Positions 28,094 through 46,127 of a stretch of 64,000 bases of DNA are shown here, one piece after another. Position 1 is the stretch's first letter, and the number at the start of each line of letters is the position of its first letter. The notes beneath the pieces are model-generated. The model did no database searches, was not told the DNA's origin, and saw only the letters and a list, made by a program, of their open reading frames with translations. Location: the NCBI RefSeq assembly GCF_058153355.1, contig NZ_CM177019.1; one strand, written 5' to 3'. The translations under genes were made by a program, and so were the position numbers.

Positions 28094-28100
28094 GCGTTCA

Positions 28101-28751
28101 TTAATTTGATTTATTCGCATCCATCAACGCTTTTAACTGCTCCGGCGAAAACGGTGGTTTGCGTCGGTGCAACATCGCATGGCAATTAGGGCACACAGGA
28201 AGCAAATCATTAACTGGATCCAGCTGGTAATCCTCTTTAATGGCTGAAAGCGGCACCAGGTGATGCACATGGATAAAGCCTTCAGCGATATCACCATAGA
28301 TCTTCACCAGATCAACGCCGCATACTTTGCACTGGCATCCATGATGTTCGACCGCTTTATCTCGGGCCTTTTTATCGCGTTCATAGCGGTTTACTGTCAC
28401 CTTTATCGCCGCACCTTCAAGGTATGTCTCCTGCGACGGCAACTCATCCGGGAACAGAACGTCGGCTATGGGAGCCGCAGCGGCTTTATCCTGATGAATA
28501 TGAAATCCCTGCTCTATGAGTAGTTTGACGCATTTAGATTTTATTCCGCCGGTGAAATCCGCAGGGGTAAATTGCGTCCCCGTCATCAATGTCGCTGCGA
28601 TGCCAGCAATCGCCTTCGAGGGGTAACGTCGGCCATGATATTCAATCTCATACAACCGCGCAGGCTGGAACTGATGAGTTTCTCCCGCATCCCATAAATG
28701 GATAGCTTCGATGATATACCGCCGCGGAAGATGATCAGGGAGTTTATTCAT
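28101..28751 (-). CDS. HNH-family endonuclease (216 aa) with an uncharacterised N-terminal domain
   Basis: C-terminal CxxC...HVHHLVPLS...N...CPNCH zinc-finger/HNH motif; N-terminal ~130 aa not recognised; convergent with nanS (7-bp gap). Confidence 0.7.
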   Translation of the reverse strand: MNKLPDHLPRRYIIEAIHLWDAGETHQFQPARLYEIEYHGRRYPSKAIAGIAATLMTGTQFTPADFTGGIKSKCVKLLIEQGFHIHQDKAAAAPIADVLFPDELPSQETYLEGAAIKVTVNRYERDKKARDKAVEHHGCQCKVCGVDLVKIYGDIAEGFIHVHHLVPLSAIKEDYQLDPVNDLLPVCPNCHAMLHRRKPPFSPEQLKALMDANKSN

Positions 28752-28887
28752 GGAGAATGTCCTTATACGTTCTCAGAACAGGCAGCAAAAAAACAAATGA
28801 GATCAAGGTAATATATCTTCACTTGCAGGCTTGAACAGCAGAAAATTTGCGAGCATGATCGCAATTATTTCACTGCCAGGGATATCA

Positions 28888-29760
28888 ATGGCTTCCAGTA
28901 AATCGCTACAGCAGGCAATTGCCAACATAAAAATCTGGCACAAGGGTGAACAGCGCGCGCCGCATAAGCCATTGTTACTGCTATACGTATTAGCGGGATA
29001 CCTGAATGGACATCCGCGCCTTTTCGATTATGGCTCGGAAATCTACGAACCTCTGCACAGTTTACTGGAACGTTTTGGGCCACAGCGTTCACAGTACCGA
29101 CCTGATATGTCGTTCTGGCGATTACAAGGCGACGGATTCTGGCAATTACACAATGCCGAACTTTGCTCAACAGCAGGGAGTAGCCGACAACCGCCAGTGA
29201 AGGAACTGACCGAACACCGCGTTGCAGGCGGTTTCGATGAACAGCACTATGCCCTGGTAATCGGCAATAAAAAACTCATCAATACCCTAGCGCAACAGAT
29301 ACTCGAAGCGCACTTCACCGAGAGCATTCAGGAAGAAATTGCTGACGAGCTGGGTTTTGATCTCCAGCAAATCCGTAAACAGCGCGACCCGTTATTTCGC
29401 AAAAATGTATTACGCGCTTATAAATACCAGTGCGCGATATGTGGCTTTAATATGCGCCACGACGACACCACCGTCGCGTTGGAAGCGGCGCATATAAAAT
29501 GGAAACAGCACGGCGGTCCTTGTGAAATTCCTAATGGCCTGGCGCTTTGTGCAATACACCATAAAGCCTTTGATAAAGGATCGATTGGCCTGGATGAAAA
29601 TATGCGGGTACTGGTCTCGGATGCGGTAAACGGCGGAGGGATCGTTGAGAAACTATTCTGGGATTTTGACGGGAAAACTATTGCGTTACCACAGGTGCGT
29701 AAAAATTACCCTTTTGAGGGGTTTGTGGAGTGGCATCGAAAAGAGGTTTTTAGGGGGTGA
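28888..29760 (+). CDS. HNH nuclease-domain protein (~290 aa from ATG at 28888; ORF track begins at a TTG at 28831), candidate modification-dependent restriction endonuclease
   Basis: C-terminal CAICGF...EAAHIKW...NGLALCAIHHKAFD motif resembling the HNH_2-type nuclease fold; AGGGA Shine-Dalgarno before 28888; N-terminal domain unassigned. Confidence 0.65.
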   Translation: MASSKSLQQAIANIKIWHKGEQRAPHKPLLLLYVLAGYLNGHPRLFDYGSEIYEPLHSLLERFGPQRSQYRPDMSFWRLQGDGFWQLHNAELCSTAGSSRQPPVKELTEHRVAGGFDEQHYALVIGNKKLINTLAQQILEAHFTESIQEEIADELGFDLQQIRKQRDPLFRKNVLRAYKYQCAICGFNMRHDDTTVALEAAHIKWKQHGGPCEIPNGLALCAIHHKAFDKGSIGLDENMRVLVSDAVNGGGIVEKLFWDFDGKTIALPQVRKNYPFEGFVEWHRKEVFRG

Positions 29761-29761
29761 G

Positions 29762-29817
29762 GTAGGCTATCTTGTGCATACAAATAGACAAATAAATTGT
29801 ATAAAGAGATAGCCTAC
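29762..29817. terminator. Inverted repeat (GTAGGCTATCT ... AGATAGCCTAC) between convergent genes; possible bidirectional terminator
   Basis: 11-bp perfect inverted repeat with ~34-nt AT-rich loop seen in sequence. Confidence 0.3.
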
Positions 29818-29822
29818 AAATA

Positions 29823-31133
29823 CTAAATAAATTCAGCCCCACTAGGAAAACGCAACTCTGATGTCTGTAAACTCTCGCCAATAAAGAAAGGTACAACCCA
29901 TAAACGTAACCTATTTTCCTTCTGATGGCTAAATTCATAAGGATGAGGAGATGGCTGATTAAATCCGTTATGATAGGGGTATATCAAAATCATATCACCT
30001 TCCCCCTCCTGGTAATTCAATCCATAGGCAAGCATTTGGTAGAGATCGGCTTGAGATTGCTCAAGACTGTCCTTTCTGCCATTAACTATCTTCCATTTAA
30101 CATCACAGGTAATAACTGAACCAGTAGTACTTTTACGAGGCCGTAAACAAATATCAGGCCGCAGCTTAAATAAAGCTTTACCGTTATAACTAATCAGATT
30201 TTTTGAACTTACCTGTGCGTCCACTCGCCATTTATCATAATAACGATAACGCATCCATGTCGTCACAAAAGATTCAAAAACAGCCTCCATCGGGAAAAGC
30301 AGTGAAAAAGCATTAACATCCCCATACATACAGTGTGGAGAATCGCCCAATAAAATCATCTTCGCCCACGCTAATGCTTGCTCATAGTGATGCATTTGTC
30401 TATCAAAGTGTAACTGCTCGAAAGCTATATAAGCATCATGAACTGACGTGATATTTTCAAAGTGAAACTGCAGCTGTGTTATCTGCTGTAATAATTGTGG
30501 ATTACTGGTCTGGCGACTAATCTTATTGATTGCAGTTTTGAGTATCCGGTTTTCCAGACGATTGACGCTGTACTCGTCATACTCTACCTGAAAACGATCC
30601 CGCCTAATACAGTTTTTGCTTAATTGTGCAGAGATCCGTAATCTTCCTTTCATCCATGGAAGATTATCTTCCTGACGTAAATAGTCACGTTTTAACCCTC
30701 TCTGCACAATCTTACGCACGCTCTCTATAAATTGTTGAATAAAGATATCCATCAGAGGCATTTTAGATATTTTGACGCCAGATTCAGAGGAGGCAATATG
30801 ACGAAATGATTTTAACGTACGTAACATCATCAGTAATTGTTGACGAACAGTATCCTCATTATCCTGACCTGTTTTAGGCAGGATTTCGAGAAATCGCCCC
30901 CCTGGCAGTGAGATTACTCCTGCATAGTTTTTTACCTGCAGCGTTTTTACTCCATTCCGGCTGCTAAGGGTGAGCAAACGATGAGTATTATCAGCATCGT
31001 CTTTCAGACAGCGCAGCTCAAGCCATTTAAATAGGTCTGCAGGTAGCACTACCGCATTATTTATACGGGCATCACCTTCCTCACTCACTAAATGCCCGTA
31101 TTCGAACACAGTGAAATGACTGGAAGATTTCAT
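29823..31133 (-). CDS. McrC-like nuclease subunit of a McrBC-type modification-dependent restriction system (start at MKSSSHF; ORF track TTG start at 31199)
   Basis: ATG overlaps the stop of the upstream McrB-like gene (ATGA overlap); size and position typical of McrC; sequence is not the K-12 McrC. Confidence 0.7.
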   Translation of the reverse strand: MKSSSHFTVFEYGHLVSEEGDARINNAVVLPADLFKWLELRCLKDDADNTHRLLTLSSRNGVKTLQVKNYAGVISLPGGRFLEILPKTGQDNEDTVRQQLLMMLRTLKSFRHIASSESGVKISKMPLMDIFIQQFIESVRKIVQRGLKRDYLRQEDNLPWMKGRLRISAQLSKNCIRRDRFQVEYDEYSVNRLENRILKTAINKISRQTSNPQLLQQITQLQFHFENITSVHDAYIAFEQLHFDRQMHHYEQALAWAKMILLGDSPHCMYGDVNAFSLLFPMEAVFESFVTTWMRYRYYDKWRVDAQVSSKNLISYNGKALFKLRPDICLRPRKSTTGSVITCDVKWKIVNGRKDSLEQSQADLYQMLAYGLNYQEGEGDMILIYPYHNGFNQPSPHPYEFSHQKENRLRLWVVPFFIGESLQTSELRFPSGAEFI

Positions 31134-33184
31134 TCCGCACTCCTGCGTTTTTCTTTTTGAGGTGCATAAATTTGCTGCCAGGCGATTGGATTGTCCCAAA
31201 CGTTGTCATCCTCTGCTGCCAGGTGAAAACTGGTTCCCAAGTCATCTGTTCCGTTATCACCAAAGAGATCGGCATACTTTTTCTGGTATTTCACCTCACG
31301 TACAAATTGAAGATCTGGTGCTTCCTCTTTTTGGTTATCAGCCAGTACCATGCGAATTTTTTGCCAGTCATTGTAAAAATATTCTTCCAGCAATGGTAGT
31401 ATCTTATTTCGCATAATCCGTTTGAATCTTTCAAATGCCAGAGCTTCGTCTTCTTTTGCCTGCACAACAGGGATAAAAAAAGCATGCCCCAGCATATGTT
31501 CTCTATCGTATAAAACCTGGATGCGATCGTTAAGCGTCTGCAATAGACGAGGCAGATCAATACCTTTAATGACAGTATCTTTCAGAACAGTAATATCTGG
31601 CAGCATCGCTTCAAAATCAAATCTGCGACGTAGTGCAGTATCAAGTGCAGTAAGCGAATGATCAGCAGTGTTCATGGTACCAATTAAATAAAGGTTATTC
31701 GGTACACTAAATGGAGTGGAAGAGTATGGCAGCAATACGCTAAGCGATTCTGGCTCACCAGCCCGTTTAGATGGCTCAATAAGGGTAATTAGTTCACCAA
31801 AAATTTTTGAAATATTACCCCGATTTATTTCATCAATAATGAGAACATAGTTTTCCTTTTTTTCTGAAGCTACGCTCTGAGTATTCAGAGGCAGATAACG
31901 TTGATTAATTAAATAGTTAAGGATACTGCGTACATAAGATGGATTATGTACTTTTGCTCGTGGATCCTGATAAACTTGCCGAATATCCTTCAAATAGGCA
32001 TTGTAACCCTGTCCTAAATCCTCTTTTTTCGATTGTGACGGAAAAATTCCAAAGTTGGTTTGACTTTTATACGTCAGCTGGAAGGCCTTACCCTGTTGTG
32101 TTTCCAGCGTGATATTTTCACCTTCAGATAAACGTTCTTGTAGGCGAGTAAGTGCGCTATCCAACATTTCCTGCGCACCAGCATGACCAAAGGCGGCATC
32201 CTCGCATATCTGTTTAAAAATACCTGCCTTTATTTCGTATTTTACATTACCGTCATCAGTAGTCTCAGCTCTTAAACCTTCAATAAACTCTTCATAACCA
32301 AAGCTCTGATGAAAGGTGATAAAACGCACTCGATTATCTTTGATAAGCTGATCATAAATCTTTTTCAACTCGCGACGTTTTTCACTCTCATCCTTACCCT
32401 CCTGCAGGGAGTAAGCGATCGGATCACAAATTTGTACAGCAAGCTCAATAGTACGATATGTTTTACCTGTACCTGGCGGGCCATAGAGAATTGTGTTTTT
32501 AGGCAATGGCGAACTTATAACATCATCTTCTTGCTCATTTTCTTGTAAAGCACTTTCGCTTCCAACTAAACCGATAGCATTTTTATCCTGAATTTCATAC
32601 GCATAGAGATGCCAAAGTGACATATTCAGCTCAATAGGGTCGATATCATCACCCAGCGCACGATTTAGCGTTTCTTTAAGATCAACATTGCGAGCCAGCC
32701 ACTCCCGTTCTCCGGAAAGACCTAGCTGGAAATGGTTGTTGCAATAATTGTAGCAACTAAAAAAATTATTAACATTCACGACACTGCTAATTTTTGATGG
32801 GTATATTGCTGCAAAAGCACGATTACAAAGAGCCCTATATACCTTATTTAATACTCCGTCCGCTTTAAGTTTGATAAGACGTTCAATGACCCGATTATAA
32901 TTTTCTTGTGTACACTCTTCTGCTATCTGACGGGTGAGCGTTAGAAGGTCTTTTTGTGCATTTTCAAATTCAACCAATGACATCCCACCTTGCATCAGGC
33001 TGGAGACACCATTGTCACGTTCATACCATACCTGCCGAATCGTGGCTTCAGAAAAGTTTGGTTTTTCGGCCTGAATCTGTTCTACAAGCTCGCGGTAGTG
33101 TTTGCCCCAAACTGAATTGTATTGATTATTTTTTTCAATTTGAGCACGAAAGAAGGGGGCTAATGCTGATGAATCCTGAACCAT
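31130..33184 (-). CDS. McrB-like AAA+ GTPase subunit (684 aa) with a divergent ~230-aa N-terminal domain
   Basis: Walker A LYGPPGTGKTY and McrB-signature MNTADHS...RRRF motifs; N-terminal region has no resemblance to the K-12 McrB DNA-binding domain. Confidence 0.78.
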   Translation of the reverse strand: MVQDSSALAPFFRAQIEKNNQYNSVWGKHYRELVEQIQAEKPNFSEATIRQVWYERDNGVSSLMQGGMSLVEFENAQKDLLTLTRQIAEECTQENYNRVIERLIKLKADGVLNKVYRALCNRAFAAIYPSKISSVVNVNNFFSCYNYCNNHFQLGLSGEREWLARNVDLKETLNRALGDDIDPIELNMSLWHLYAYEIQDKNAIGLVGSESALQENEQEDDVISSPLPKNTILYGPPGTGKTYRTIELAVQICDPIAYSLQEGKDESEKRRELKKIYDQLIKDNRVRFITFHQSFGYEEFIEGLRAETTDDGNVKYEIKAGIFKQICEDAAFGHAGAQEMLDSALTRLQERLSEGENITLETQQGKAFQLTYKSQTNFGIFPSQSKKEDLGQGYNAYLKDIRQVYQDPRAKVHNPSYVRSILNYLINQRYLPLNTQSVASEKKENYVLIIDEINRGNISKIFGELITLIEPSKRAGEPESLSVLLPYSSTPFSVPNNLYLIGTMNTADHSLTALDTALRRRFDFEAMLPDITVLKDTVIKGIDLPRLLQTLNDRIQVLYDREHMLGHAFFIPVVQAKEDEALAFERFKRIMRNKILPLLEEYFYNDWQKIRMVLADNQKEEAPDLQFVREVKYQKKYADLFGDNGTDDLGTSFHLAAEDDNVWDNPIAWQQIYAPQKEKRRSAE

Positions 33185-33542
33185 CTCTTAATCCAATATG
33201 TAGGGGGGAGGGAAATTGGGATAGCCTTATCTTATCGGATTAATCTCAAAAATGTTAAATTTTATGATAAAAAAAAACTTTCATCCTGAAATTACCTTCT
33301 GCCCTGGAGCCGCCACATTTATCTGATGACTTTGAACTGCAAAACGCATGGTGTTGGTGGTTCTCAGAGAAGGCCATAGCATTCTTTCAGACGTAAAATC
33401 GCTACTCGTTTTTCAACCTGTGTGCATTTTCTAGTTGCATAGGGAATCAACTGTTTTTCAGGTAGGTATTGTTTACAGTAAATGGATATGCCGAAATTCA
33501 GAGGGTTCCAGTAACGACATTTTGACAGCAAACATACGACAT

Positions 33543-34376
33543 TCATTTTGCTGATAACGCTGACGGATAGTGCTTCGCCACAATGTCATTCATCTTATCC
33601 ACCAGATCCAGTCGCTTGAATGTGATGTGTCCACTGCCTTTCTGGTAATAGCGGATGACAAATAAATCGTCATTAAATACCTGCTCATGCGGGTGAGCAC
33701 TAACGAAGTCCATAAACCGAATCGCAACATCATGCCGGTTATCGGGAATGGCCTTCCCATCCAGCAGATAGAACATCCGTTCCAGATCGGCAAGCTGATC
33801 TCGCCGCCAGCCCCAGTGCAGGCTGTAACCCCATCGGTCATGCTTCACCAGATTGTTAACGATAATCTTCTTACCGAAATAACAGGGATTATTGGTTTTG
33901 TAATCCCAGCTCAATCCCTTAAATACATTGATAATCCCACGTTCGAAAACGTCATGCTTATTGTGGTGGAGTTGTTCAAAGGTACTCAGGATGTTGGCTT
34001 CGCTAATCGCCGGGAGATCGCCCTCCTCCAGGTTCTTTGCCCACTGACTGCGGGCTTCGGCATCCATCAGAGTCAACATCCCGGACTTCAGCATGAGATC
34101 GCGCCAGATGCTGCGATCGATATTGCGGGTGATCGCCGACATCGCTTTGTCGGTTGGTTGCATCAGCCAGCAGTCAAAGGCATATCCATTACGCATTCCC
34201 CAGGTTCCAGCCACATCACCGCCAATACTGGATGTCAGACTGGAGATATCATCCAGTTTTTGGATTAGCGTCGCTATCAGCTTCAGTGCGCTATCACGTC
34301 CTGTGACGATACGCTCAATATTGGTCGAGCGAATTATCTCGTTGTGATCGGTTAAGACTTCAGCTTCTGTTTGCAT
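33543..34376 (-). CDS. Hypothetical protein (277 aa), same strand and upstream of the McrBC-like pair; possibly a DUF4942-type protein (low confidence)
   Basis: Uninterrupted ORF, no recognised catalytic motif; located inside the defence island. Confidence 0.5.
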   Translation of the reverse strand: MQTEAEVLTDHNEIIRSTNIERIVTGRDSALKLIATLIQKLDDISSLTSSIGGDVAGTWGMRNGYAFDCWLMQPTDKAMSAITRNIDRSIWRDLMLKSGMLTLMDAEARSQWAKNLEEGDLPAISEANILSTFEQLHHNKHDVFERGIINVFKGLSWDYKTNNPCYFGKKIIVNNLVKHDRWGYSLHWGWRRDQLADLERMFYLLDGKAIPDNRHDVAIRFMDFVSAHPHEQVFNDDLFVIRYYQKGSGHITFKRLDLVDKMNDIVAKHYPSALSAK

Positions 34377-34682
34377 AATCTTTCATCCGTAAAAAAATAC
34401 ACTCGCCGTTAGTAGCAGACGGATTATCCTCTGGTGAAAGATTGGGTAAATAATGAGATTGAAAATCGGGAAGGTGACTCGCAATAAATTATCTGATCAC
34501 CTACGGATGGACGATGGGCATATAAAATAGCCTCCTGACTCAAACGGTGAATGCTGAATAAGATGCACTAACAATCTGGTACTGAATCCCCTCCTCACCG
34601 TCATACAAATCTGAAAAACCAAAAAACTTCCGGTAAAATCCCGGCAAAAGCCGACGTTAAAAACACATTCAAAGGATAAAAA

Positions 34683-36239
34683 ATGACCAGTCTTCAGCAG
34701 CGCGCGGAGCTTCATCGCCAAATCTGGCAAATTGCTAACGATGTCAGAGGTTCGGTCGATGGATGGGATTTTAAGCAATACGTTCTGGGCGCGCTTTTCT
34801 ACCGTTTTATCAGCGAAAATTTTTCCAGCTATATTGAAGCCGGTGATGACAGCATCTGTTATGCGAAACTGGATGACAGCGTAATTACTGATGACATTAA
34901 AGACGATGCCATCAAAACCAAAGGCTACTTCATCTACCCAAGTCAGCTTTTCTGCAACGTAGCTGCGAAAGCAAATACCAATGACAGACTGAACGCAGAT
35001 TTAAACAGCATCTTCGTTGCTATCGAAAGTTCTGCTTACGGTTACCCTTCAGAAGCTGACATCAAAGGTTTGTTTGCTGATTTCGATACCACCAGTAACC
35101 GCCTGGGTAATACCGTTAAGGATAAAAATGCCCGCCTGGCCGCGGTTCTGAAAGGGGTTGAAGGGTTAAAGCTTGGCGACTTTAACGAACATCAGATTGA
35201 CCTGTTCGGCGATGCCTATGAGTTCCTGATTTCTAACTATGCGGCGAATGCCGGTAAGTCAGGCGGCGAGTTCTTTACACCGCAGCACGTCTCTAAGCTG
35301 ATTGCACAACTGGCTATGCACGGGCAGACCCACGTTAACAAAATCTACGACCCGGCAGCGGGTTCCGGTTCGCTGTTGTTGCAGGCTAAAAAGCAGTTTG
35401 ATGACCACATCATCGAAGAAGGTTTTTTTGGTCAGGAAATCAACCATACGACCTATAACCTGGCGCGTATGAACATGTTTTTGCACAACATCAACTACGA
35501 CAAGTTTGATATCAAGTTGGGCAATACGCTGACTGAGCCGCACTTCAGAGATGAAAAACCGTTTGACGCCATCGTATCTAACCCACCGTATTCGGTGAAA
35601 TGGATAGGCAGCGATGACCCGACGCTGATTAACGATGAACGTTTTGCCCCGGCTGGCGTCCTGGCCCCCAAATCAAAAGCTGACTTCGCCTTTGTACTAC
35701 ATGCGCTGAACTATCTTTCTGCCAAAGGTCGTGCTGCGATTGTCTGCTTCCCGGGTATTTTTTACCGTGGCGGCGCAGAGCAGAAAATCCGTCAGTATCT
35801 GGTTGATAATAACTATGTCGAAACCGTGATTTCACTGGCTCCGAACCTGTTCTTTGGCACCACCATTGCCGTCAATATTCTGGTGTTGTCTAAACATAAA
35901 ACCGATACCAAAGTTCAGTTTATTGACGCCAGCGAACTATTCAAAAAAGAGACTAACAACAACATTCTGACCGATGCCCATATCGAACAGATTATGCAGG
36001 TATTTGCCAGCAAGGAAGATGTTGCTCATCTGGCGAAATCTGTCGCGTTTGAGACCGTTGTCGCTAATGACTATAACCTGTCGGTAAGCAGCTATGTGGA
36101 AGCGAAAGATAACCGCGAAATTATCGATATCAGTGAGCTGAATGCTGAGCTGAAAACCACGGTCAGCAAAATCGACCAGTTGCGTAAAGATATTGATGCG
36201 ATTGTGGCTGAAATTGAAGGCTGCGAGGTGCAGAAATGA
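34683..36239 (+). CDS. hsdM: Type I restriction-modification system methyltransferase subunit HsdM (type IC, EcoR124-like)
   Basis: 518 aa; N6-adenine MTase motifs ([10 protein letters not shown] motif I; IVSNPPYS motif IV); closely resembles recalled EcoR124I HsdM. Confidence 0.93.
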
Positions 36240-37390
36240 ACGAGTTGAGTTATCTGGAAAAATTACTGGATGGGGTTGAGGTTGAGTGGTTGCCATTGGC
36301 TAAAGTTTGTCGTTTAATAAACGGGAGAGCATATAAGCAAGAAGAACTGCTTTCCAAAGGCAAATATCCAGTATTAAGAGTCGGTAATTTTTTTACTAAC
36401 CAAAATTGGTATTACTCAGATTTAGAATTAGATCAAGACAAGTATTGTGATAACGGTGACCTTTTATATGCTTGGTCCGCATCATTTGGTCCAAGAATTT
36501 GGCATGGGGGTAAATCTATTTACCATTATCACATATGGAAAGTGGTTCCAGATTCGAATCTTATTTGTAAACAGTTTCTATATTACTTGTTACAATGGGA
36601 TACTAAAGCACTTAAAGATGCACATAGCACTGGTTCTACTATGATGCACATCAGCAAAACTACAATTGAAAAAAGGTTAGTCCCCATCCCCTGCCCGGAT
36701 AATCCGGAAAAATCCCTTGCCATCCAGTCTGAAATCGTTCGGATTCTGGATAAATTTACTGCACTTACCGCTGAGCTTACCGCTGAGCTTAATATGCGAA
36801 AAAAACAGTACAACTACTATCTCGACCAGTTACTGAATCTTGAGGGTAGGGAAAATACTCGAGAAATGAGGATAGGTGATATTTATGATTTTCAGTATGG
36901 AACAGGCAATACAATTCCTAAATCTGGAGGGCAATATCCTGTTTATGGTAGCAACGGGATTGTAGGCTCCCATGACAAATATAACAGCGAAGACTCACCT
37001 GTTATTGGCCATATAGGTGCTTACGCAGGAATCGTTAACTGGGGCCAGGGTAAGCATTTTGTTACATACAACGGAGTTATTTGTAGGCACAAATCGAAGG
37101 AAGTTCTTCAAAAATACGCCTACTATTTATTACTTTTACAAGATTTCGGTTCAAAATCTAATAGTGCATCACAGCCTTTTGTTTCATATAACATATTAAA
37201 TGCTCCTATTGTTTTGGTTCCCCCTTTACAAGAGCAAGCTCGTATCGTCGCAATACTCGATAAATTCGACACCCTGACCAACTCCATCACCGAAGGTCTT
37301 CCGCGTGAAATCGAGTTGCGCCAGAAACAATACGAGTACTATCGTGATTTACTGTTCAGTTTCCCAAAACCTGAAACTCTCAGTAATTAA
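36236..37390 (+). CDS. hsdS: Type I R-M specificity subunit HsdS (type IC) with two target-recognition domains
   Basis: 384 aa; conserved central ([35 protein letters not shown]) and C-terminal ([33 protein letters not shown]) type IC regions flanking variable TRDs; 4-bp overlap with hsdM. Confidence 0.9.
36764..36787 (+). repeat. Two tandem copies of a 12-bp unit (CTTACCGCTGAG) encoding TAEL-TAEL in the HsdS central conserved region
   Basis: Perfect 12-bp tandem duplication seen in sequence; in type IC systems the copy number of this repeat sets the spacer length of the recognition site. Confidence 0.85.
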
Positions 37391-37511
37391 TTGACCATTA
37401 TTACAGACCGGACCATCTTAATATCCGGTCAGTATATAGACTATTTTTTACACGCCGGAAGTCACCATTAACCCCCTTCCGGCCCTTGCCAGACGGCACA
37501 AAGGATGCGCT

Positions 37512-40500
37512 ATGACTCATCAAACACACACCATTGCTGAATCCAATAACTTTATCGTTCTTGATAAGTACATCAAAGCTGAGCAAACAGGCGACAGCTA
37601 TCAGAGCGAATCGGACCTGGAACGTGAACTGATTCAGGACCTGCAAAATCAGGGCTATGAATTTATACCCGTAAAATCACAGTCAGCGATGCTGGCCAAC
37701 GTTCGGGAACAGCTTCAGAGCCTCAATGGTGTGGTGTTTAATGACAGCGAGTGGCGGCGTTTCACGGAGCAGTATCTGGATAACCCGAGCGATGGCATTC
37801 TGGATAAGACCCGTAAAATCCATATCGACTATATTTGCGACTTTATTTTTGATGACGAGCGACTTGAGAACATCTATTTGATAGATAAAAAGAATCTCAT
37901 GCGCAATAAGGTGCAGATTATCCAGCAGTTTGAACAGGCGGGTTCCCACTCTAACCGCTATGATGTCACGATCCTGATTAATGGCTTACCACTGGTACAA
38001 ATCGAACTGAAAAAGCGCGGCGTGGCGATTCGTGAGGCTTTCAACCAGATACATCGTTACAGTAAAGAGAGTTTTAACAGCGAAAATTCCCTGTTTAAGT
38101 ATCTGCAACTGTTTGTCATTTCTAACGGCACCGATACCCGTTACTTTGCCAACACCACAAAGCGCGATAAAAATAGTTTTGACTTCACCATGAACTGGGC
38201 GAAATCAGACAACACGCTGATTAAAGACCTCAAAGATTTTACCGCTACCTTTTTCCAGAAACATACTCTGCTTAATGTTCTGGTGAACTACAGCGTGTTC
38301 GATATTAGCCAGACGCTACTGGTGATGCGACCGTACCAGATTGCCGCCACCGAACGAATCTTATGGAAAATCAACAGCTCCTATAAAGCGAAAAACTGGT
38401 CTACCCCCGAAAGCGGTGGCTTTATCTGGCACACCACCGGTTCCGGTAAAACCCTGACCAGCTTTAAAGCTGCGCGTCTGGCAACAGAGCTGGACTTTAT
38501 TGATAAAGTCTTCTTCGTGGTCGACAGAAAAGACCTCGATTACCAGACCATGAAGGAATATCAGCGTTTTTCGCCAGATAGTGTTAACGGTTCGGAAAAT
38601 ACCGCAGGCCTGAAACGAAATCTGGATAAGGACGATAACAAAATTATCGTCACCACTATTCAGAAACTTAATAACCTGATGAAAGCAGAAAGCGACCTGC
38701 CTGTATACAATCAGCAAGTGGTGTTTATATTTGATGAATGTCACCGCAGCCAGTTTGGAGAAGCGCAGAAAAACCTGAAGAAGAAATTCAAACGCTATTA
38801 TCAGTTTGGTTTTACCGGCACACCTATTTTCCCGGAAAACGCTTTAGGCTCAGAAACGACCGCCAGCGTATTTGGTCGTGAATTGCATTCGTATGTGATT
38901 ACCGATGCGATTCGTGATGAAAAAGTGCTCAAATTCAAGGTGGACTATAACGATGTGCGGCCACAATTTAAGTCTTTAGAGACAGAAACCGACGAGAAAA
39001 AACTGAGTGCGGCTGAAAATCAGCAGGCGTTTCTTCATCCCATGCGTATACAGGAAATTACGCAATATATTCTGAATAACTTCCGCCAGAAGACCCACCG
39101 TACTTTCCCAGGTTCCAAAGGCTTTAATGCCATGCTGGCAGTGAGTAGCGTGGATGCCGCGAAAGCCTATTACGCGACGTTTAAACGGTTACAAGAGGAA
39201 GCCGCTAATAAATCTGCTACCTATAAACCACTACGTGTTGCGACAATCTTCTCCTTTGCCGCTAATGAAGAACAAAATGCCATTGGTGAAATTTCCGATG
39301 AAACTTTTGATACCAGCGCAATGGACAGCAGTGCTAAAGAGTTTCTCGACGCTGCAATTCGTGAATATAACAGCTATTTTAAAACTAACTTCAGTACCGA
39401 CAGTAACGGTTTTCAGAACTACTATCGTGATTTAGCCCAACGGGTTAAAAATCAGGATATCGATCTGTTAATTGTCGTTGGGATGTTTTTAACCGGCTTC
39501 GACGCTCCAACATTGAACACGCTATTCGTCGATAAAAACTTGCGTTTTCACGGCCTGATGCAGGCATTTTCCCGCACCAACCGCATTTATGACGCCACTA
39601 AAACCTTCGGTAACATCGTCACTTTTCGGGATCTGGAACGCTCAACCATTGATGCCATAACGCTGTTTGGTGATAAAAATACCAAAAATGTGGTGTTAGA
39701 AAAGAGTTATGCCGAGTATATGGAAGGCTTTACAGATGCTGCCACTGGTGAAGCTAAACGCGGCTTTATGGCAGTAGTTTCAGAACTGGAACAACGGTTC
39801 CCTGACCCTGCCAGTATTGAAAGTGAAAAAGAGAAGAAAGACTTCGTTAAACTGTTTGGTGAATACCTGCGCGCCGAGAACATCCTGCAAAACTATGATG
39901 AATTTGCCACGCTGAAAGCCCTGCAACAAATCGATCTTAGCGATCCTGTTGCGGTAGAAAAATTCAAAGCAGAACATTATGTGGATGATGAAAAGTTTGC
40001 TGAATTACAAACGATTCGTCTCCCTGCTGAACGTAAGATTCAGGATTATCGTTCGGCCTATAACGATATTCGTGACTGGCAGCGCCGCGAGAAAGAAGCT
40101 GACAAAAAAGAAAAATCAACCACTGACTGGGATGACGTGGTTTTTGAGGTCGATTTGCTGAAGTCTCAGGAAATAAACCTGGATTATATCCTTGGACTGA
40201 TTTTCGAACACAACAGACAAAACAAAGGTAAGGGCGAAATGACCGAAGAGGTCAAACGCTTAATTCGTTCGAGCCTTGGGAACCGTGCCAAAGAAGGCCT
40301 GGTGGTCGATTTTATTCAACAAACGAACCTGGATGATTTGCCGGATAAAGCCAGTATCATTGACGCGTTCTTTATCTTTGCTCAACGCGAACAGCAACGT
40401 GAAGCAGAAGCGTTGATTAAAGAAGAAAATCTCAATGAAGAAGCAGCGAAACGCTATATTCGCACGTCTTTAAAACGCGAATACGCCACCGAAAATGGCA

Positions 40501-40628
40501 CAGAATTAAACGAGACGTTACCAAAACTTAGTCCGTTAAACCCGCAATATAAAACGAAAAAACAGACGGTTTTCCAGAAGATCGTCGCGTTTATTGAGAA
40601 GTTTAAAGGTGTAGGCGGGCAGATATAA
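37512..40628 (+). CDS. hsdR: Type I restriction enzyme R subunit HsdR (type IC, EcoR124-like), 1038 aa
   Basis: SF2 helicase motifs ([24 protein letters not shown]) and N-terminal nuclease region; near-identical over long stretches to recalled EcoR124I HsdR. Confidence 0.93.
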
Positions 40629-40852
40629 TGTATTAATCCGAACCTGATCTGGCAGATAGCTGTCAGATCAGGACTGAGCTAATACAAATTAATATCGAAC
40701 CGAAAATACCAACGCCTGTACCAACATTTTTCGTTTGCGATGGGTTGAAATTGGTTGGCTCTGAGAGAGTTAAAATAGCGAGAAAGATAGGTAACTAATG
40801 GATCCCAGACACAAAAAAAGCCGCCCTTGAGCGACTCGATTTGCATACGATG

Positions 40853-40937
40853 TGGTGCCGAAGGCCGGACTCGAACCGGCACGTATTTCTACGGTTGATT
40901 TTGAATCAACTGCGTCTACCGATTTCGCCACTTCGGC
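40853..40937 (-). tRNA. leuX: tRNA-Leu (anticodon CAA), leuX
   Basis: 85-nt sequence on the minus strand matches recalled leuX (GCCGAAGTGGCGAAATCGGTAGACGCAGTTGATTCAAAATCAACCGTAGAAATACGTGCCGGTTCGAGTCCGGCCTTCGGCACCA); its 3' end faces the island. Confidence 0.95.
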
Positions 40938-41132
40938 ACTGAAGAGGTATGCGGAAAACGTTGTGGATTATACCTGTCGCACGCCACCATGCAAGCGCCA
41001 GCTTGCACCCACTTTGCTAAGTGCTGAAATTTTCAGCATTGCATACCGCGATGTGTAACCTTTGTCACACTCCAGGCACCCCGCCCTACCATGCTCTACA
41101 CTTCCCAGACAACACCAGAGAAGGACAAAAAT

Positions 41133-42218
41133 ATGTCGATGATAAAAAGCTATGCCGCAAAAGAGGCTGGCGGCAAACTGGAAGTTTATGAGTACGATCC
41201 CGGTGAACTGAAGCCACAAGATGTCGAAGTGCAGGTGGATTACTGCGGGATCTGCCATTCCGATCTGTCGATGATCGACAACGAATGGGGATTTTCACAG
41301 TATCCGCTGGTTGCCGGGCATGAGGTGATTGGGCGCGTGGTGGCGCTCGGGAGCGCCGCGCAGGATAAAGGTTTGCAGGTCGGTCAGCGTGTCGGGATTG
41401 GCTGGACGGCGCGAAGCTGTGGTCACTGCGATGCCTGTATTAGCGGTAATCAGATCAACTGCGAGCAAGGTGCGGTGCCAACAATTATGAATCGCGGCGG
41501 TTTTGCCGAGAAGTTGCGTGCAGACTGGCAATGGGTGATTCCACTGCCGGAAAATATCGATATCGATTCCGCCGGGCCGCTGCTGTGTGGTGGTATCACG
41601 GTCTTCAAACCACTGTTAATGCACCATATCACTGCCACCAGCCGCGTTGGGGTAATTGGTATTGGCGGGCTGGGGCATATCGCTATAAAACTTCTGCACG
41701 CAATGGGATGCGAGGTAACGGCCTTTAGTTCTAATCCGGCGAAAGAGCAGGAAGTGCTGGCGATGGGTGCCGATAAAGTAGTGAATAGCCGCGATCCGCA
41801 GGCACTGAAAGCACTGGCGGGGCAGTTTGATCTCATTATCAACACCGTCAACGTCAGCCTCGACTGGCAGCCTTATTTTGAGGCGCTGACGTATGGCGGT
41901 AATTTCCATACAGTCGGCGCGGTCCTCACGCCGCTGTCTGTTCCGGCCTTTACGTTAATTGCGGGCGACCGCAGCGTCTCTGGTTCAGCAACAGGTACAC
42001 CTTATGAGCTGCGTAAGCTGATGCACTTTGCCGCCCGCAGCAAGGTTGCGCCGACTACCGAACTGTTCCCTATGTCGAAAATTAACGACGCCATTCAGCA
42101 TGTACGCGATGGTAAAGCGCGCTACCGAGTGGTCCTGAAAGCCGACTTCTGCTCCCTTTGCCGGGTGCCTGTCGCCCGGCTTTTAAATCTCTTTGGAAGG
42201 CGTCTCGCAATCTGCTGA
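41133..42218 (+). CDS. ahr: NADPH-dependent aldehyde reductase Ahr (YjgB), with a 22-codon C-terminal extension relative to the 339-aa K-12 protein
   Basis: Zn-dependent alcohol dehydrogenase family (GHEVIG, GxGGLG); start at [14 protein letters not shown]; no stop after ...VVLKADF. Confidence 0.88.
42160..42184 (+). terminator. Intrinsic terminator-like hairpin (GCCGGG-loop-CCCGGC followed by TTTT) lying inside the extended ahr reading frame
   Basis: 6-bp GC stem plus T tract seen in sequence. Confidence 0.5.
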
Positions 42219-42281
42219 ATTTAGCGGTGAAGAGTGCGCAGCCGTTGCCTATACTCCAGGCAGGAAACTGGAGGAAATCTC

Positions 42282-43784
42282 ATGAGCGAACCCCTGTTAA
42301 TTGCCCGCACGCCGGACACAGAACTGTTTTTACTGCCGGGAATGGCTAACCGTCACGGGCTGATTACTGGCGCAACGGGGACGGGTAAAACCGTTACGCT
42401 GCAAAAACTGGCAGAGTCATTGTCGGAAATCGGTGTTCCGGTGTTTATGGCCGATGTGAAAGGTGATTTAACGGGAGTAGCGGAGGAAGGTACATCTTCG
42501 GAAAAACTGCTCGCAAGGCTGAAAAATATCGGCGTCAATGACTGGCAACCACATGCTAATCCGGTGGTGGTGTGGGATATCTTTGGCGAGAAAGGCCACC
42601 CGGTGCGGGCGACGCTTTCAGACCTGGGGCCGCTGTTGCTGGCGCGACTGTTGAATCTCAACGATGTGCAATCTGGCGTGCTGGATATCATCTTCCGCAT
42701 TGCTGATGATCAGGGGCTGTTACTGCTCGACTTTAAAGATTTGCGGGCGATTACCCAGTACATCGGCGATAACGCCAAATCCTTCCAGAATCAGTACGGT
42801 AATATCAGTAGCGCATCGGTTGGTGCCATCCAGCGCGGGCTGTTATCGCTGGAACAGCAAGGCGCAGCACACTTCTTTGGTGAGCCGATGCTGGATATCA
42901 AAGACTGGATGCGTACCGATACCAACGGTAAAGGCGTTATCAATATCCTCAGCGCCGAGAAGCTTTATCAGATGCCGAAACTGTACGCCGCCAGCCTGCT
43001 GTGGATGCTTTCAGAGTTATATGAACAATTGCCTGAAGCGGGCGATCTGGAGAAACCAAAACTGGTGTTTTTCTTCGACGAAGCACATCTGCTGTTTAAC
43101 GATGCACCGCAGGTACTGCTGGATAAGATTGAGCAGGTGATAAGGCTTATTCGCTCAAAAGGCGTGGGCGTCTGGTTCGTTTCGCAAAACCCGTCAGATA
43201 TCCCGGATAACGTGCTCGGGCAGCTCGGTAATCGCGTTCAACACGCTTTGCGTGCTTTTACGCCTAAAGATCAGAAAGCAGTAAAAGCTGCGGCGCAAAC
43301 CATGCGGGCCAATCCGGCGTTTGATACCGAAAAGGCAATCCAGGAACTGGGGACCGGCGAGGCGTTAATCTCGTTTCTCGATGCGAAAGGAAGCCCTTCA
43401 GTGGTGGAACGGGCGATGGTGATTGCCCCCTGTTCACGAATGGGGCCGGTGACGGAAGATGAGCGTAACGGCCTGATTAATAACTCCCCGGTGTATGGCA
43501 AGTACGAGGATGACGTGGACCGGGAATCCGCCTATGAGATGTTGCAAAAAGGCTTTCAGGCCAGTACCGAGCAGCAAAATAATCCTCCCGCGAAAGGGAA
43601 AGAGGTGGCGGTGGATGACGGTATTCTTGGTGGATTGAAGGATATTTTGTTTGGCACTACCGGACCACGCGGCGGGAAGAAAGATGGTGTGGTGCAAACA
43701 ATGGCGAAAAGCGCCGCCCGCCAGGTGACGAATCAGATTGTGCGTGGTGTGCTGGGGAGTTTGCTGGGGGGGAGAAGAAGGTAA
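42282..43784 (+). CDS. yjgR: DUF853-family P-loop NTPase YjgR (start at [12 protein letters not shown])
   Basis: 500 aa; Walker A GATGTGKT; synteny. Confidence 0.85.
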
Positions 43785-43802
43785 GTCAGGTGCGATTTGT
43801 CT

Positions 43803-43842
43803 TTGCCTGATGCGACGCTGGCGCGCCTTATCATGCCTACAC
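43803..43842. repeat. REP element
   Basis: TGCCTGATGCGACGCTGGCGCGCCTTATCATGCCTAC REP-like palindrome. Confidence 0.5.
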
Positions 43843-43944
43843 TACTGCAATATATTGAATTTTCATGATTTTTCAGGCATGAACGAAGCACACTTTGCTA
43901 ACAATAATAAAGGGAGCTTTCGCTCCCTTTATTCGTTCATCCAG

Positions 43945-45027
43945 TTACGATTTTCTCATTAACAGCCACAGGCTGATTAAGAAGAAGCTGGCGCTTGGCA
44001 ACAGTGCGCCGATGATCGGCGGGATGCCGTAAACCAGCGTCAGCGGGCCGAAGATCTGGTCCAGTACGTAGAAGACAAAACCGAAGCTGATACCGGTGAC
44101 CACACGCACGCCCATCGGCACGCTACGCAGTGGGCCGAAGATGAACGACAGCGCCATCAGCATCATCACCGCCACGGATAACGGCTGGAAGATTTTGCTC
44201 CACATGTTGAGCTGATAACGTCCGGCATCCTGACCGCTCGACTTCAGATACTTCACGTAGTTGTGCAAACCACTGATGGAGAGTGCATCCGGGTCCAGCG
44301 CCACCACGCCCAGTTTGTCCGGCGTGAGGTTGGTTTTCCAGGTACCGCTCACCGTCTGTGAACCAGTGATCTGTTTCGGATTGGTCAGATCAGATTCATC
44401 AACCTGCGACAGACGCCAGACTTTATGTTCCGGGTCAAACTTCGCGGTAGCGGCATAGCGTACAGATTGCAGACGACGATTCTCATTAAAGGCATAGATA
44501 CTGATGCCACCTAACTCTTCGTCACCTTTAACCCGCTCAATGTAGACGAAGTTGTTGCCATCTTTTGCCCATAAACCTTGCTGGGTAGAGAGCAACGAGC
44601 CACCGTACATCGCCTGCGCACGGTAGTTACGCGCCATCTGCTCGCCCTGCGGTGCGACCCATTCGCCAATCGCCATCGTCAACAAGACCAGCGGAATGGC
44701 GGTTTTCATCACCGACAGTGCCACCTGCATACGGGTAAAACCAGAAGCCTGCATGACCACCAGTTCGCTGCGCTGCGCCAACATCCCAAGACCAAGCAAC
44801 GCCCCAAGCAGAGCCGCCATCGGGAAGAAGATTTGCACATCTTTCGGCACGCTCAGCAAGGTATACATTCCTGCGCCTAACGCGTCGTAACTCCCCTGCC
44901 CGGCTTTTTTCAGCTGATCGACAAACTTGATAATGCCCGACAGCGACACCAGCATGAACAGCGTCATCATGATGGTGGTGAAAATAGTTTTACCGATATA
45001 GCGGTCAAGTACGCCAAAAGGTTGCAT
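43945..45027 (-). CDS. lptG: LPS export ABC transporter permease LptG
   Basis: 360 aa; MQPFGVLDRYIGKTIF...; overlaps lptF stop. Confidence 0.95.
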   Translation of the reverse strand: MQPFGVLDRYIGKTIFTTIMMTLFMLVSLSGIIKFVDQLKKAGQGSYDALGAGMYTLLSVPKDVQIFFPMAALLGALLGLGMLAQRSELVVMQASGFTRMQVALSVMKTAIPLVLLTMAIGEWVAPQGEQMARNYRAQAMYGGSLLSTQQGLWAKDGNNFVYIERVKGDEELGGISIYAFNENRRLQSVRYAATAKFDPEHKVWRLSQVDESDLTNPKQITGSQTVSGTWKTNLTPDKLGVVALDPDALSISGLHNYVKYLKSSGQDAGRYQLNMWSKIFQPLSVAVMMLMALSFIFGPLRSVPMGVRVVTGISFGFVFYVLDQIFGPLTLVYGIPPIIGALLPSASFFLISLWLLMRKS

Positions 45028-46127
45028 CACACCGCTCCTTTACGCGAAAAACTGGCGCGCAGGCGGCGGACCGGCACGGTGTCCCAAAGGTTGAGAACAA
45101 TCGCCAAAGCCAGATAAATCAGGTTAACGGTCCACATCCACAGCGTCGGGTCCAGCTTACCTTTACCGCCGTTCGATTTCAGGGAGGTCTGGATCAGGAA
45201 GAACAACAGATACAGCAGCATGGCTGGCAGCATCGACAGTACGCGTCCCTGACGCGGGTTAACCACGCTCAACGGTACAACCATAAGTGCCATCATAAAC
45301 ACGGTGAATACCAACGTGATACGCCAGTTCAGTTCTGCGCGGGCACGATCGGTGTCAGTGTTCCACAATGTGCGCATGTCCATCTGGTCGGTATCGTTCG
45401 GATCGAGCGCCACCGCCTGGTGACCAATGATCGCCTGATAATCCTGGAAGTCCGTAATGCGGAAATCGCGTAACAGTGCAGTGCCTTCGAAGCGCGTTCC
45501 CTGGTTGAGAGTGACGACCTGGGAGCCGTCGCGCAGCTGGGTTAAATGTCCGGAATCGGCCACCACCACAGAAGGACGTGCATTACCTTTTGGTCGAATT
45601 TGCGCGAGGAACACATCTTTGAAATCGCTGCCGTCAACGCTTTCGATGAACAGCACCGAGCTGCCATTAGTCGCTTGCTGGAATTGCCCTTGCGCCAGCG
45701 CCGCCATGCCAGGGTTCGCTTTCGCTTCTGCTAACACTTCATCCTGATGACGCGATGACCACGGTCCCGCCCACATCACGTTAACCGCCGCGACGATTGC
45801 CGTGAATACCGCAAGGATCATTGCCGCTTTCACCAGCACCGCTTTGCTCAGGCCGCAGGCATGCATTACCGTAATTTCACTTTCGGTATACAGTTTGCCC
45901 AGCGTCATCAGCAGCCCGAGGAACAGGCTTAATGGCAGGATAAGCTGCGCCATTTCCGGCACGCCCAACCCGAGAAGGGAGAGCACCAGATTCGCCGGAA
46001 TATCGCCGTCAACCGCTGCGCCGAGGATCCTCACTAACTTTTGACAGAAGAAGATCAAAAGCAAGATGAAGAGTATCGCCAGCTGGCTTTTGAGCGTCTC
46101 CCGCACCAGATATCTTATGATTATCAC
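45027..46127 (-). CDS. lptF: LPS export ABC transporter permease LptF
   Basis: 366 aa; MIIIRYLVRETLKSQ... Confidence 0.95.
   Translation of the reverse strand: MIIIRYLVRETLKSQLAILFILLLIFFCQKLVRILGAAVDGDIPANLVLSLLGLGVPEMAQLILPLSLFLGLLMTLGKLYTESEITVMHACGLSKAVLVKAAMILAVFTAIVAAVNVMWAGPWSSRHQDEVLAEAKANPGMAALAQGQFQQATNGSSVLFIESVDGSDFKDVFLAQIRPKGNARPSVVVADSGHLTQLRDGSQVVTLNQGTRFEGTALLRDFRITDFQDYQAIIGHQAVALDPNDTDQMDMRTLWNTDTDRARAELNWRITLVFTVFMMALMVVPLSVVNPRQGRVLSMLPAMLLYLLFFLIQTSLKSNGGKGKLDPTLWMWTVNLIYLALAIVLNLWDTVPVRRLRASFSRKGAV

Follow-up and report, generated by a model that had tools for sequence, protein, structure and literature searches.

The hsdM, hsdS and hsdR genes described here very probably form an intact and probably functional type IC restriction-modification system at the leuX-anchored defence hotspot 37, which, judged by its sequence, would work by an EcoR124I-like mechanism and would owe its hsdS allele to recombination of target-recognition domains (TRDs). 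The genes lie in a stretch of 64,000 nucleotides (contig NZ_CM177019.1 of assembly GCF_058153355.1), referred to below as the window, and are all listed among its open reading frames (ORFs):

34683-36239, plus strand: hsdM, 518 aa
36236-37390, plus strand: hsdS, 384 aa
37391-37511, plus strand: hsdS-hsdR intergenic gap, 121 bp, presumed to hold a separate hsdR promoter
37512-40628, plus strand: hsdR, 1038 aa

The start of hsdM and the end of hsdR are exactly those of the first-pass annotation, and both the gene order that it had claimed (hsdM-hsdS, a gap, then hsdR) and its 1038-aa HsdR were recovered from the ORF coordinates. The hsdM/hsdS junction is a 4-nt ATGA overlap, and neither an ORF nor prrC was found inside the 121-bp gap.

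HsdM and HsdR belong to the EcoR124 family, to which their sequences are far closer than to types IA, IB or ID. In phmmer comparisons with PDB chains, HsdM aligned ungapped with the EcoR124 M protein (7bst_D) at 1155 bits with 4 substitutions, against 66 bits for EcoKI M, and it is about 99% identical to EcoR124I HsdM over its full length. It keeps both the AdoMet motif and the catalytic NPPY, contains the Pfam domains HsdM_N and N6_Mtase, and scores 649 bits with the NCBIfam hsdM model TIGR00497 (cut-off 243). Judged by these motifs and models, the hsdM product is the N6-adenine DNA methyltransferase subunit. HsdR aligned with EcoR124I HsdR (2w00_A) at 2257 bits, residues 1-1038 on 1-1038 and ungapped, and the PDB chains that it matched were those of EcoR124-type HsdR only, over the full length. 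With 24 substitutions counted over the first 1010 residues of this alignment, and roughly 25 in all, the full-length identity is about 97.6%. The nuclease residues D151, E165 and K167 are retained, as are K220 and the ATPase motifs, Walker A GSGKT (K313) and DECH (408-411). The NCBIfam hsdR model TIGR00348 matched at 756 bits, far over its cut-off, and the Pfam domains HSDR_N, ResIII, SWI2_SNF2, T1R_D3-like and EcoR124_C (PF12008) give the composition required of the type IC family, i.e. a PD-(D/E)xK nuclease, SF2 motor domains and an EcoR124-type C-terminal domain. These residues and domains mark the hsdR product as the restriction and translocase subunit. The EcoR124-like type IC assignment of the first-pass annotation is thus upheld by full-length alignments to PDB chains, and the comparison with EcoR124I that it had proposed as a check gave high similarity in HsdM and HsdR and, for HsdS, likeness in the conserved scaffold only. 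The type IC family is formally defined by subunits that can be exchanged in vivo with those of other type IC enzymes; since HsdM and HsdR are 97-99% identical to their EcoR124I counterparts, such exchange is expected here.

HsdS gave a strong match to the PADLOC Specificity_I model (4.5e-122). It aligned with the EcoR124 S protein (7bst_A, phmmer) at residues 1-52, 114-224 and 290-384 only, which are its three conserved regions (N-terminal, central and C-terminal); the two variable domains are unrelated to EcoR124 S. The protein is divided as follows:

36236-36292, plus strand: N-terminal conserved region, match to EcoR124 HsdS
about 36293-36685, plus strand: TRD1, unlike EcoR124 HsdS, recurring in other type IC HsdS proteins
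36686-36844, plus strand: central conserved region, match to EcoR124 HsdS
36767-36790, plus strand: TAEL repeats, two tandem 12-bp copies of ACCGCTGAGCTT, coding for TAEL-TAEL
about 36845-37231, plus strand: TRD2, unlike EcoR124 HsdS, recurring in other type IC HsdS proteins
37232-37390, plus strand: C-terminal conserved region, match to EcoR124 HsdS

HsdS both starts and ends inside the split distal conserved region, with its TAEL repeats in the central one, a type IC trait. Two TAEL repeats specify an N6 spacer (methylated adenines separated by 7 bp) and three an N7 spacer (8 bp) (PMC3874165; Table 1 of PMC12707154), a rule demonstrated for EcoR124I/II and EcoDXXI hybrids only and extrapolated here to other TRDs. 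From the two repeats of HsdS, the target is therefore predicted to contain an N6 spacer, its two methylated adenines being separated by 7 bp.

Since both TRDs are unlike those of EcoR124I, as the first-pass annotation had stated, the recognition sequence is predicted to differ from that of EcoR124I. That the enzyme still recognises the EcoR124I site, GAA N6 RTCG, despite its different TRDs is extremely improbable: although the scaffold and the number of TAEL repeats are identical to those of EcoR124I, neither TRD is detectably similar to the EcoR124I TRDs, and two E. coli HsdS proteins (P0087 and P0115) pair the genuine EcoR124I TRD1 with the TRD2 found here, showing that these modules are distinct alleles. 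The earlier proposal of a new recognition sequence consequently stands in the sense of a sequence different from that of EcoR124I, the TRDs having been replaced, and does not stand beyond that, the TRDs being common circulating modules whose pairing also occurs in Klebsiella and Acinetobacter relatives. Publications on type IC E. coli methylomes, on strain CI5 and on PDB 7EEW, a structure whose TRD weakly resembles TRD2, yielded nothing usable on the recognition half-sites, and no strain with a published methylome was located among the 44 complete genomes carrying TRD1. The relatives bearing these TRDs have generic names in their sources, such as 'restriction endonuclease subunit S', from which no half-site could be derived.

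Type IC DNA was found in 1,622 of 5,426 complete E. coli genomes, with 1,171 chromosomal places and 787 places on plasmids, and in 1,114 PLSDB records. Each TRD of HsdS is present in 44 to 60 of the complete genomes (44 for TRD1). The TRD1 and TRD2 pair occurs in none of the 5,426 and is present in a few drafts and in an SSU5-like phage-plasmid. We considered whether the pair was freshly assembled in E. coli and rejected this, as a diverged pair exists in Klebsiella (87% identity for TRD1, 79% for TRD2) and in Acinetobacter (79% and 66%, respectively). This version of HsdS is rare, not exotic.

The first-pass annotation had described the system as chromosomal, and its neighbours agree. Beyond leuX lie ahr, yjgR, lptG and lptF, and nanCMS, fim and uxuR lie on the other side of the hsd genes, so that the locus sits inside hotspot 37, which by its published definition (PMC12707154) extends from lptG to uxuR:

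9447-10220, minus strand: uxuR, hotspot 37 boundary gene
40853-40937, minus strand: leuX, tRNA-Leu(CAA) (ARAGORN), anchor of hotspot 37, 224 bp downstream of hsdR
43945-45030, minus strand: lptG, hotspot 37 boundary gene

A system carried in reality by a plasmid or phage-plasmid, like that of R124, and made to look chromosomal by misassembly would accord with the frequency of type IC cassettes on plasmids and their occurrence on P1-like and SSU5-like phage-plasmids. However, no break separates uxuR, fim and nan from the hsd genes, or these from leuX, ahr and lptG, in the window; 21 kb of it are matched at 99.986% identity by an independent GenBank draft contig (GCA_015332025.1); and in 202 closed chromosomes among the 5,426 complete E. 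coli genomes, hsdR, leuX and ahr form the same contiguous junction. We give this possibility virtually no weight. Nor is the chromosomal location of a type IC system unusual, because a 2025 review (PMC12707154) already puts the share of genomes with type IC systems at hotspot 37, the one anchored by leuX, at about 4%, and because of the 1,171 chromosomal places counted above. An integrated island bounded by att sites was considered for this strain and rejected: no duplication of the leuX 3' end was found anywhere in the window, and no integrase ORF between nanS and leuX.

The hsd genes coincide with a DNA segment that is also found in another context:

34680-40663, plus strand: mobile hsdMSR cassette, the DNA common to the copies in SSU5-like phage-plasmid contigs

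Compared with three such contigs (L002-L004), the cassette gave one ungapped 5,984-bp alignment at 96.5% identity, with no homology outside it. The flank of one of them (L002) is 97% identical to SSU5-like phage-plasmids, and this set encodes an HsdS (P0002) that is 99% identical to the one described here. A P1-like label for this second context was rejected on the flank comparison; a separate P1-like (Punavirus) phage-plasmid with a type IC cassette does exist. The title of Tyndall et al. 1997, as cited in PMC12707154, agrees with the carriage of type IC cassettes by phage-plasmids.

Identity to the phage-plasmid copy is not uniform along the cassette. It is 96.07% in hsdM, 96.12% in hsdR and 96.2% in the central conserved region of hsdS, against 100% in TRD1 (0 differences in 393 positions, P=1.6e-7) and 98.97% in TRD2 (P=7e-4). 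TRD1 is also 100% identical to that of STEC2017-197, although the hsdM of that strain differs by 2.7%. TRDs at 99-100% within genes at about 96% are, at the level of sequence identity, what TRD exchange classically leaves behind. The present hsdS allele would have arisen by homologous recombination that set TRD modules already in circulation into an hsd framework that had diverged locally. Rather tentatively, the bipartite m6A target specified by TRD1, TRD2 and two TAEL repeats may be one unassigned to any characterised type I enzyme, with TRD-only gene conversion possibly continuing between phage-plasmids and the leuX hotspot.

Regarding expression, one further region was delimited:

34377-34682, plus strand: presumed location of the hsdMS promoter, upstream of hsdM

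It contains a weak sigma-70-like match (CTGAAA-17-TAAAAT) at 34611-34639, and homology with the phage-plasmid copies begins only at 34680, i.e. right before hsdM. Since a scan for consensus promoters returned 14 sites for 11.4 expected, no better than shuffled sequence, the hsdMS promoter (Pmod) is a presumed one. The 121-bp hsdS-hsdR gap contained no consensus promoter at a threshold of 9/12; from the organisation of the EcoR124 family, we infer an hsdR promoter (Pres) in this gap.

By analogy with EcoR124I, whose literature (PMC12707154; PMC3874165) provides the enzymology, subunit stoichiometry and assembly-based restriction alleviation that we extend to this locus, one HsdS and two HsdM would form an M2S1 methyltransferase, as suggested by the near-identity of the system to EcoR124I. 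This enzyme would methylate a bipartite target at one adenine per strand. Addition of HsdR would give R1M2S1 and then R2M2S1, and on an unmethylated target the latter would translocate flanking DNA with ATP and cut at distant sites. The two TRDs would set the choice of target, and the two TAEL repeats its spacing. Alternatively, the genes could be intact and the system modification-only or silent, for instance from poor hsdR expression or from an HsdR substitution weakening assembly. The lack of a recognisable consensus promoter in the gap before hsdR fits such a state, as do the roughly 25 positions at which HsdR departs from that of EcoR124I and the dependence of EcoR124I restriction on a second HsdR that binds weakly (PMC12707154). 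We nevertheless regard it as unlikely, as HsdR is full length with all catalytic residues and domains present, and the hsdS-hsdR gap is conserved at 92-96% in chromosomal and phage-plasmid copies, which argues for maintained function. The locus is an ordinary one, contributing a further specificity allele of the best-studied type I family at an already described hotspot; its significance is mostly strain-level, and it opens no new question. Knowledge of its motif would aid transformation or phage-typing of this lineage, and the contrast in identity between TRDs and framework offers a quantifiable case of phage-plasmids and chromosomes exchanging specificity modules.

Among named systems, the closest is EcoR124I, the type IC prototype of plasmid R124 (PDB 2w00, 7bst), which has the same HsdM and HsdR lengths, the same gene order and gap, the HsdS conserved regions, two TAEL repeats (7-bp adenine separation) and the EcoR124_C domain; it differs by its own TRDs, hence its own target, and by its location on an IncF plasmid, whereas the present locus is chromosomal at leuX. 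The hotspot 37 loci of CI5 and STEC2017-197 occupy the same position in the order DUF4942, hsdMSR, leuX, ahr, and have HNH, PT-dependent REase and either McrBC or AbiE modules upstream, as here. The hsdS allele of STEC2017-197 shares TRD1 only with the present one; in that of CI5 the common part is TRD2 alone, and there are three TAEL repeats against two. EcoprrI (CCA N7 RTGC) is also a chromosomal type IC system of E. coli but carries the prrC anticodon nuclease gene between hsdS and hsdR, which is missing here, and has three TAEL repeats instead of two (PMC3874165). Finally, the P1-like (Punavirus) and SSU5-like phage-plasmids carry the same 5,984-bp hsdMSR cassette at 96.5% identity, in entirely different flanking DNA and with a framework about 4% diverged around near-identical TRDs.

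The open reading frames of the restriction locus were found at exactly the coordinates that the first-pass annotation had proposed for hsdM, hsdS and hsdR (34683-40628), including the separation of hsdR from the other two genes:

34683-36239, + strand, hsdM, ORF of 518 aa
36236-37390, + strand, hsdS, ORF of 384 aa, sharing an ATGA overlap with hsdM
37512-40628, + strand, hsdR, ORF of 1038 aa, after a 121-bp gap behind hsdS

The resemblance to EcoR124I claimed there, down to the length of HsdR, was borne out by alignment. In a search of all PDB chains, HsdR aligned without gaps to EcoR124I HsdR (2w00_A) over residues 1-1038 (2257 bits); 24 substitutions were counted up to residue 1010, an identity of about 97.6%. 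Read off this alignment, the nuclease triad D151/E165/K167, K220, the Walker A motif GSGKT (K313) and the DECH box (408-411) are all kept. HsdM and the EcoR124 M protein (7bst_D) are separated by four substitutions, and HsdM retains both NPPY and the 10-residue AdoMet motif. HsdS resembles the EcoR124 S protein only in its conserved N-terminal, central and C-terminal stretches, and the two domains between these three, each about 130 residues long, are not related to that protein, as the earlier annotation had supposed for the target-recognition domains (TRD1 and TRD2). NCBIfam, PADLOC and precomputed Pfam assignments, among them the EcoR124_C domain, were concordant with the PDB matches. The statement that K-12 has its type IA system, EcoKI, at a different locus agrees with PMC12707154.

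The three genes are intact and keep their motifs and context. Because the subunits are near-identical to those of EcoR124I, whose structure and biochemistry are well defined, the locus very probably encodes a working type IC system, and its genes are presumably expressed and active. A scan for consensus promoters was not informative (14 sites vs 11.4 expected). M2S1 would methylate a bipartite site, and R1M2S1, then R2M2S1, would translocate and cleave unmethylated DNA; self-restriction would be avoided through assembly dynamics and not ClpXP (PMC12707154).

An identical HsdS is present in GenBank on a handful of draft contigs, under a generic annotation, and a 99% variant is found in eight contigs. 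At the DNA level, at least 99% identity to TRD1 was found in 44 complete genomes and to TRD2 in 60, each TRD being joined to many different partners among the HsdS homologues listed; in two of these (P0087 and P0115) TRD2 is paired with the genuine EcoR124I "GAA" TRD1. None of the complete genomes carries both TRDs together, no match spanning more than 67% of hsdS. The allele therefore joins two common modules in a rare pairing. HsdS proteins from Klebsiella (TRD1 87%, TRD2 79%), Acinetobacter (TRD1 79%, TRD2 66%) and metagenomes have this pair in diverged form, again with two repeats in the linker, so the idea of the pair as a unique invention was rejected.

The hsdMSR genes are also found on SSU5-like phage-plasmid contigs (L002 and L003). 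The DNA common to these copies and the window is only 34680-40663, with 3 nt ahead of the hsdM start and 35 nt behind the hsdR stop, and the flanks of the phage-plasmid copies are 97% identical to SSU5-like phage-plasmids. Segments of this cassette were compared with L002.

Identity of window segments to the L002 copy (binomial P relative to the framework rate)
hsdM: 96.07%
hsdR: 96.12%
hsdS-hsdR gap: 92.6%
hsdS N-terminal conserved region: 93.0%
hsdS central conserved region: 96.2%
TRD1: 100% (0/393 differences), P=1.6e-7
TRD2: 98.97% (4/387 differences), P=7e-4

The TRDs (98.97-100%) are thus much younger than the surrounding genes (about 96%), as is also seen with STEC2017-197, whose TRD1 is identical to that of the window while its hsdM is 2.7% different. 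The modules were probably exchanged by recombination in the conserved regions, a process experimentally shown for EcoR124I/EcoDXXI hybrids and reviewed in PMC3874165. In L002 and L003, whose HsdS is 99% identical, the stretch 3236-6527 encodes a MetG-like protein of full length (677 aa) and a ParA/Mrp-like protein. Genes of humD/hot type and the hsd cassette follow directly, with SSU5-like phage-plasmid DNA on the downstream side; the metG-mrp genes may be part of the element or mark a chromosomal junction. In one P1-like Punavirus, a type IC locus lies between phd/doc and pmgS, which fits the title of Tyndall et al. 1997, as cited in PMC12707154.

In the window, the single tRNA gene detected by ARAGORN, tRNA-Leu(CAA) (leuX), lies at 40853-40937 on the - strand, 224 bp past the hsdR stop, and is followed by ahr, yjgR, lptG and lptF. 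The genes next to the cassette are:

28101-28751, - strand, ScoMcrA_N/HNH protein of 216 aa, between nanS and the McrBC-like genes
28831-29760, + strand, HNH ORF of 309 aa (290 aa in the NCBI annotation), between nanS and the McrBC-like genes
29823-31199, - strand, McrC-like protein of 436-458 aa, G+C about 40%
31130-33184, - strand, long McrB-like protein of 684 aa, G+C about 40%
33543-34376, - strand, DUF4942 protein of 277 aa (Pfam 1.4e-68), divergent from hsdM
41091-42218, + strand, ahr ORF, reading past the usual stop

Beyond the HNH genes follow nanS, nanM, nanC, the fim operon, gntP, uxuA and uxuB, and uxuR. The G+C content is 40-47% across about 29.5-40.9 kb vs 52-56% in the flanks. 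The product of 28831-29760 scored 432 bits (cut-off 180) against the NCBIfam model "phosphorothioated DNA-binding restriction endonuclease" (SBD-HNH), and the two HNH proteins together resemble a PT-dependent restriction module of type IV. The McrBC-like pair scores far under the EcoKMcrBC equivalog cut-offs (108 vs 338 and 117 vs 637 bits) and therefore belongs to a divergent family of McrBC systems in which the N-terminal DNA-binding region is different. The DUF4942 protein, weakly linked through PHROG to a family of DNA methyltransferases, is encoded outside the cassette common to the phage-plasmids; its gene consistently accompanies the chromosomal type IC locus, being intact in E. coli CI5 and IS3-disrupted in STEC2017-197. 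Ahr is 98% identical to CI5 Ahr over residues 15-353 and then has 22 extra residues; in the matching GenBank-derived locus no gene is called at this position.

An E. coli draft contig (GCA_015332025.1) is 99.986% identical to the window over 21 kb, and the core genes at 41000-46000 (ahr, yjgR, lptG, lptF) reach a best identity of 97.9% among 5,426 complete E. coli genomes. The hsdMSR locus is therefore genuinely chromosomal, and the strain's lineage is a somewhat divergent one within E. coli, with no close relative among the complete genomes. Neither an integrase gene in the defence cluster beside leuX (about 28100-40850) nor a duplicated leuX 3' end in the window was found, and a bounded integrative element was therefore rejected for the island in this strain. 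The cluster replaces the KpLE2-type content of K-12 at this position. In other strains, a P4-like satellite lies between hsdR and leuX.

A chromosomal type IC system at leuX is not unusual. Defence "hotspot 37" of E. coli, with leuX as its anchor and lptG and uxuR as its boundaries, holds type IC systems in 4% of genomes, and the classical hsd/ICR locus is without them (2025 EcoSal Plus review, PMC12707154). Our counts agree: type IC DNA was found in 1,622 of the 5,426 complete genomes (1,171 chromosomal and 787 plasmid places), and a contiguous hsdR-leuX-ahr junction in 202 (3.7%). STEC2017-197 and CI5 share the arrangement of DUF4942, hsdMSR, leuX and ahr, with different hsdS alleles.

In the central conserved region of hsdS, ACCGCTGAGCTT occurs twice in tandem (36767-36790), which gives TAELTAEL in the protein. 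CI5 (L007, 8365-9543) has the same chromosomal locus and the same TRD2 with three TAEL repeats vs two in the window; the switch in spacer length described for EcoR124I/II is therefore a natural polymorphism at hotspot 37. The two repeats, under the type IC repeat rule, predict (3-4 nt) N6 (4-5 nt) as the layout of the target. The window system adds an allele to a thoroughly known family, at a hotspot that is already documented, and its identification is correct but ordinary. Like EcoR124I, in which two repeats go with an N6 spacer and 7 bp between the methylated adenines, its HsdS carries two repeats, whereas EcoR124II, EcoDXXI and EcoprrI have three, with N7 and 8 bp (PMC3874165; Table 1 of PMC12707154).
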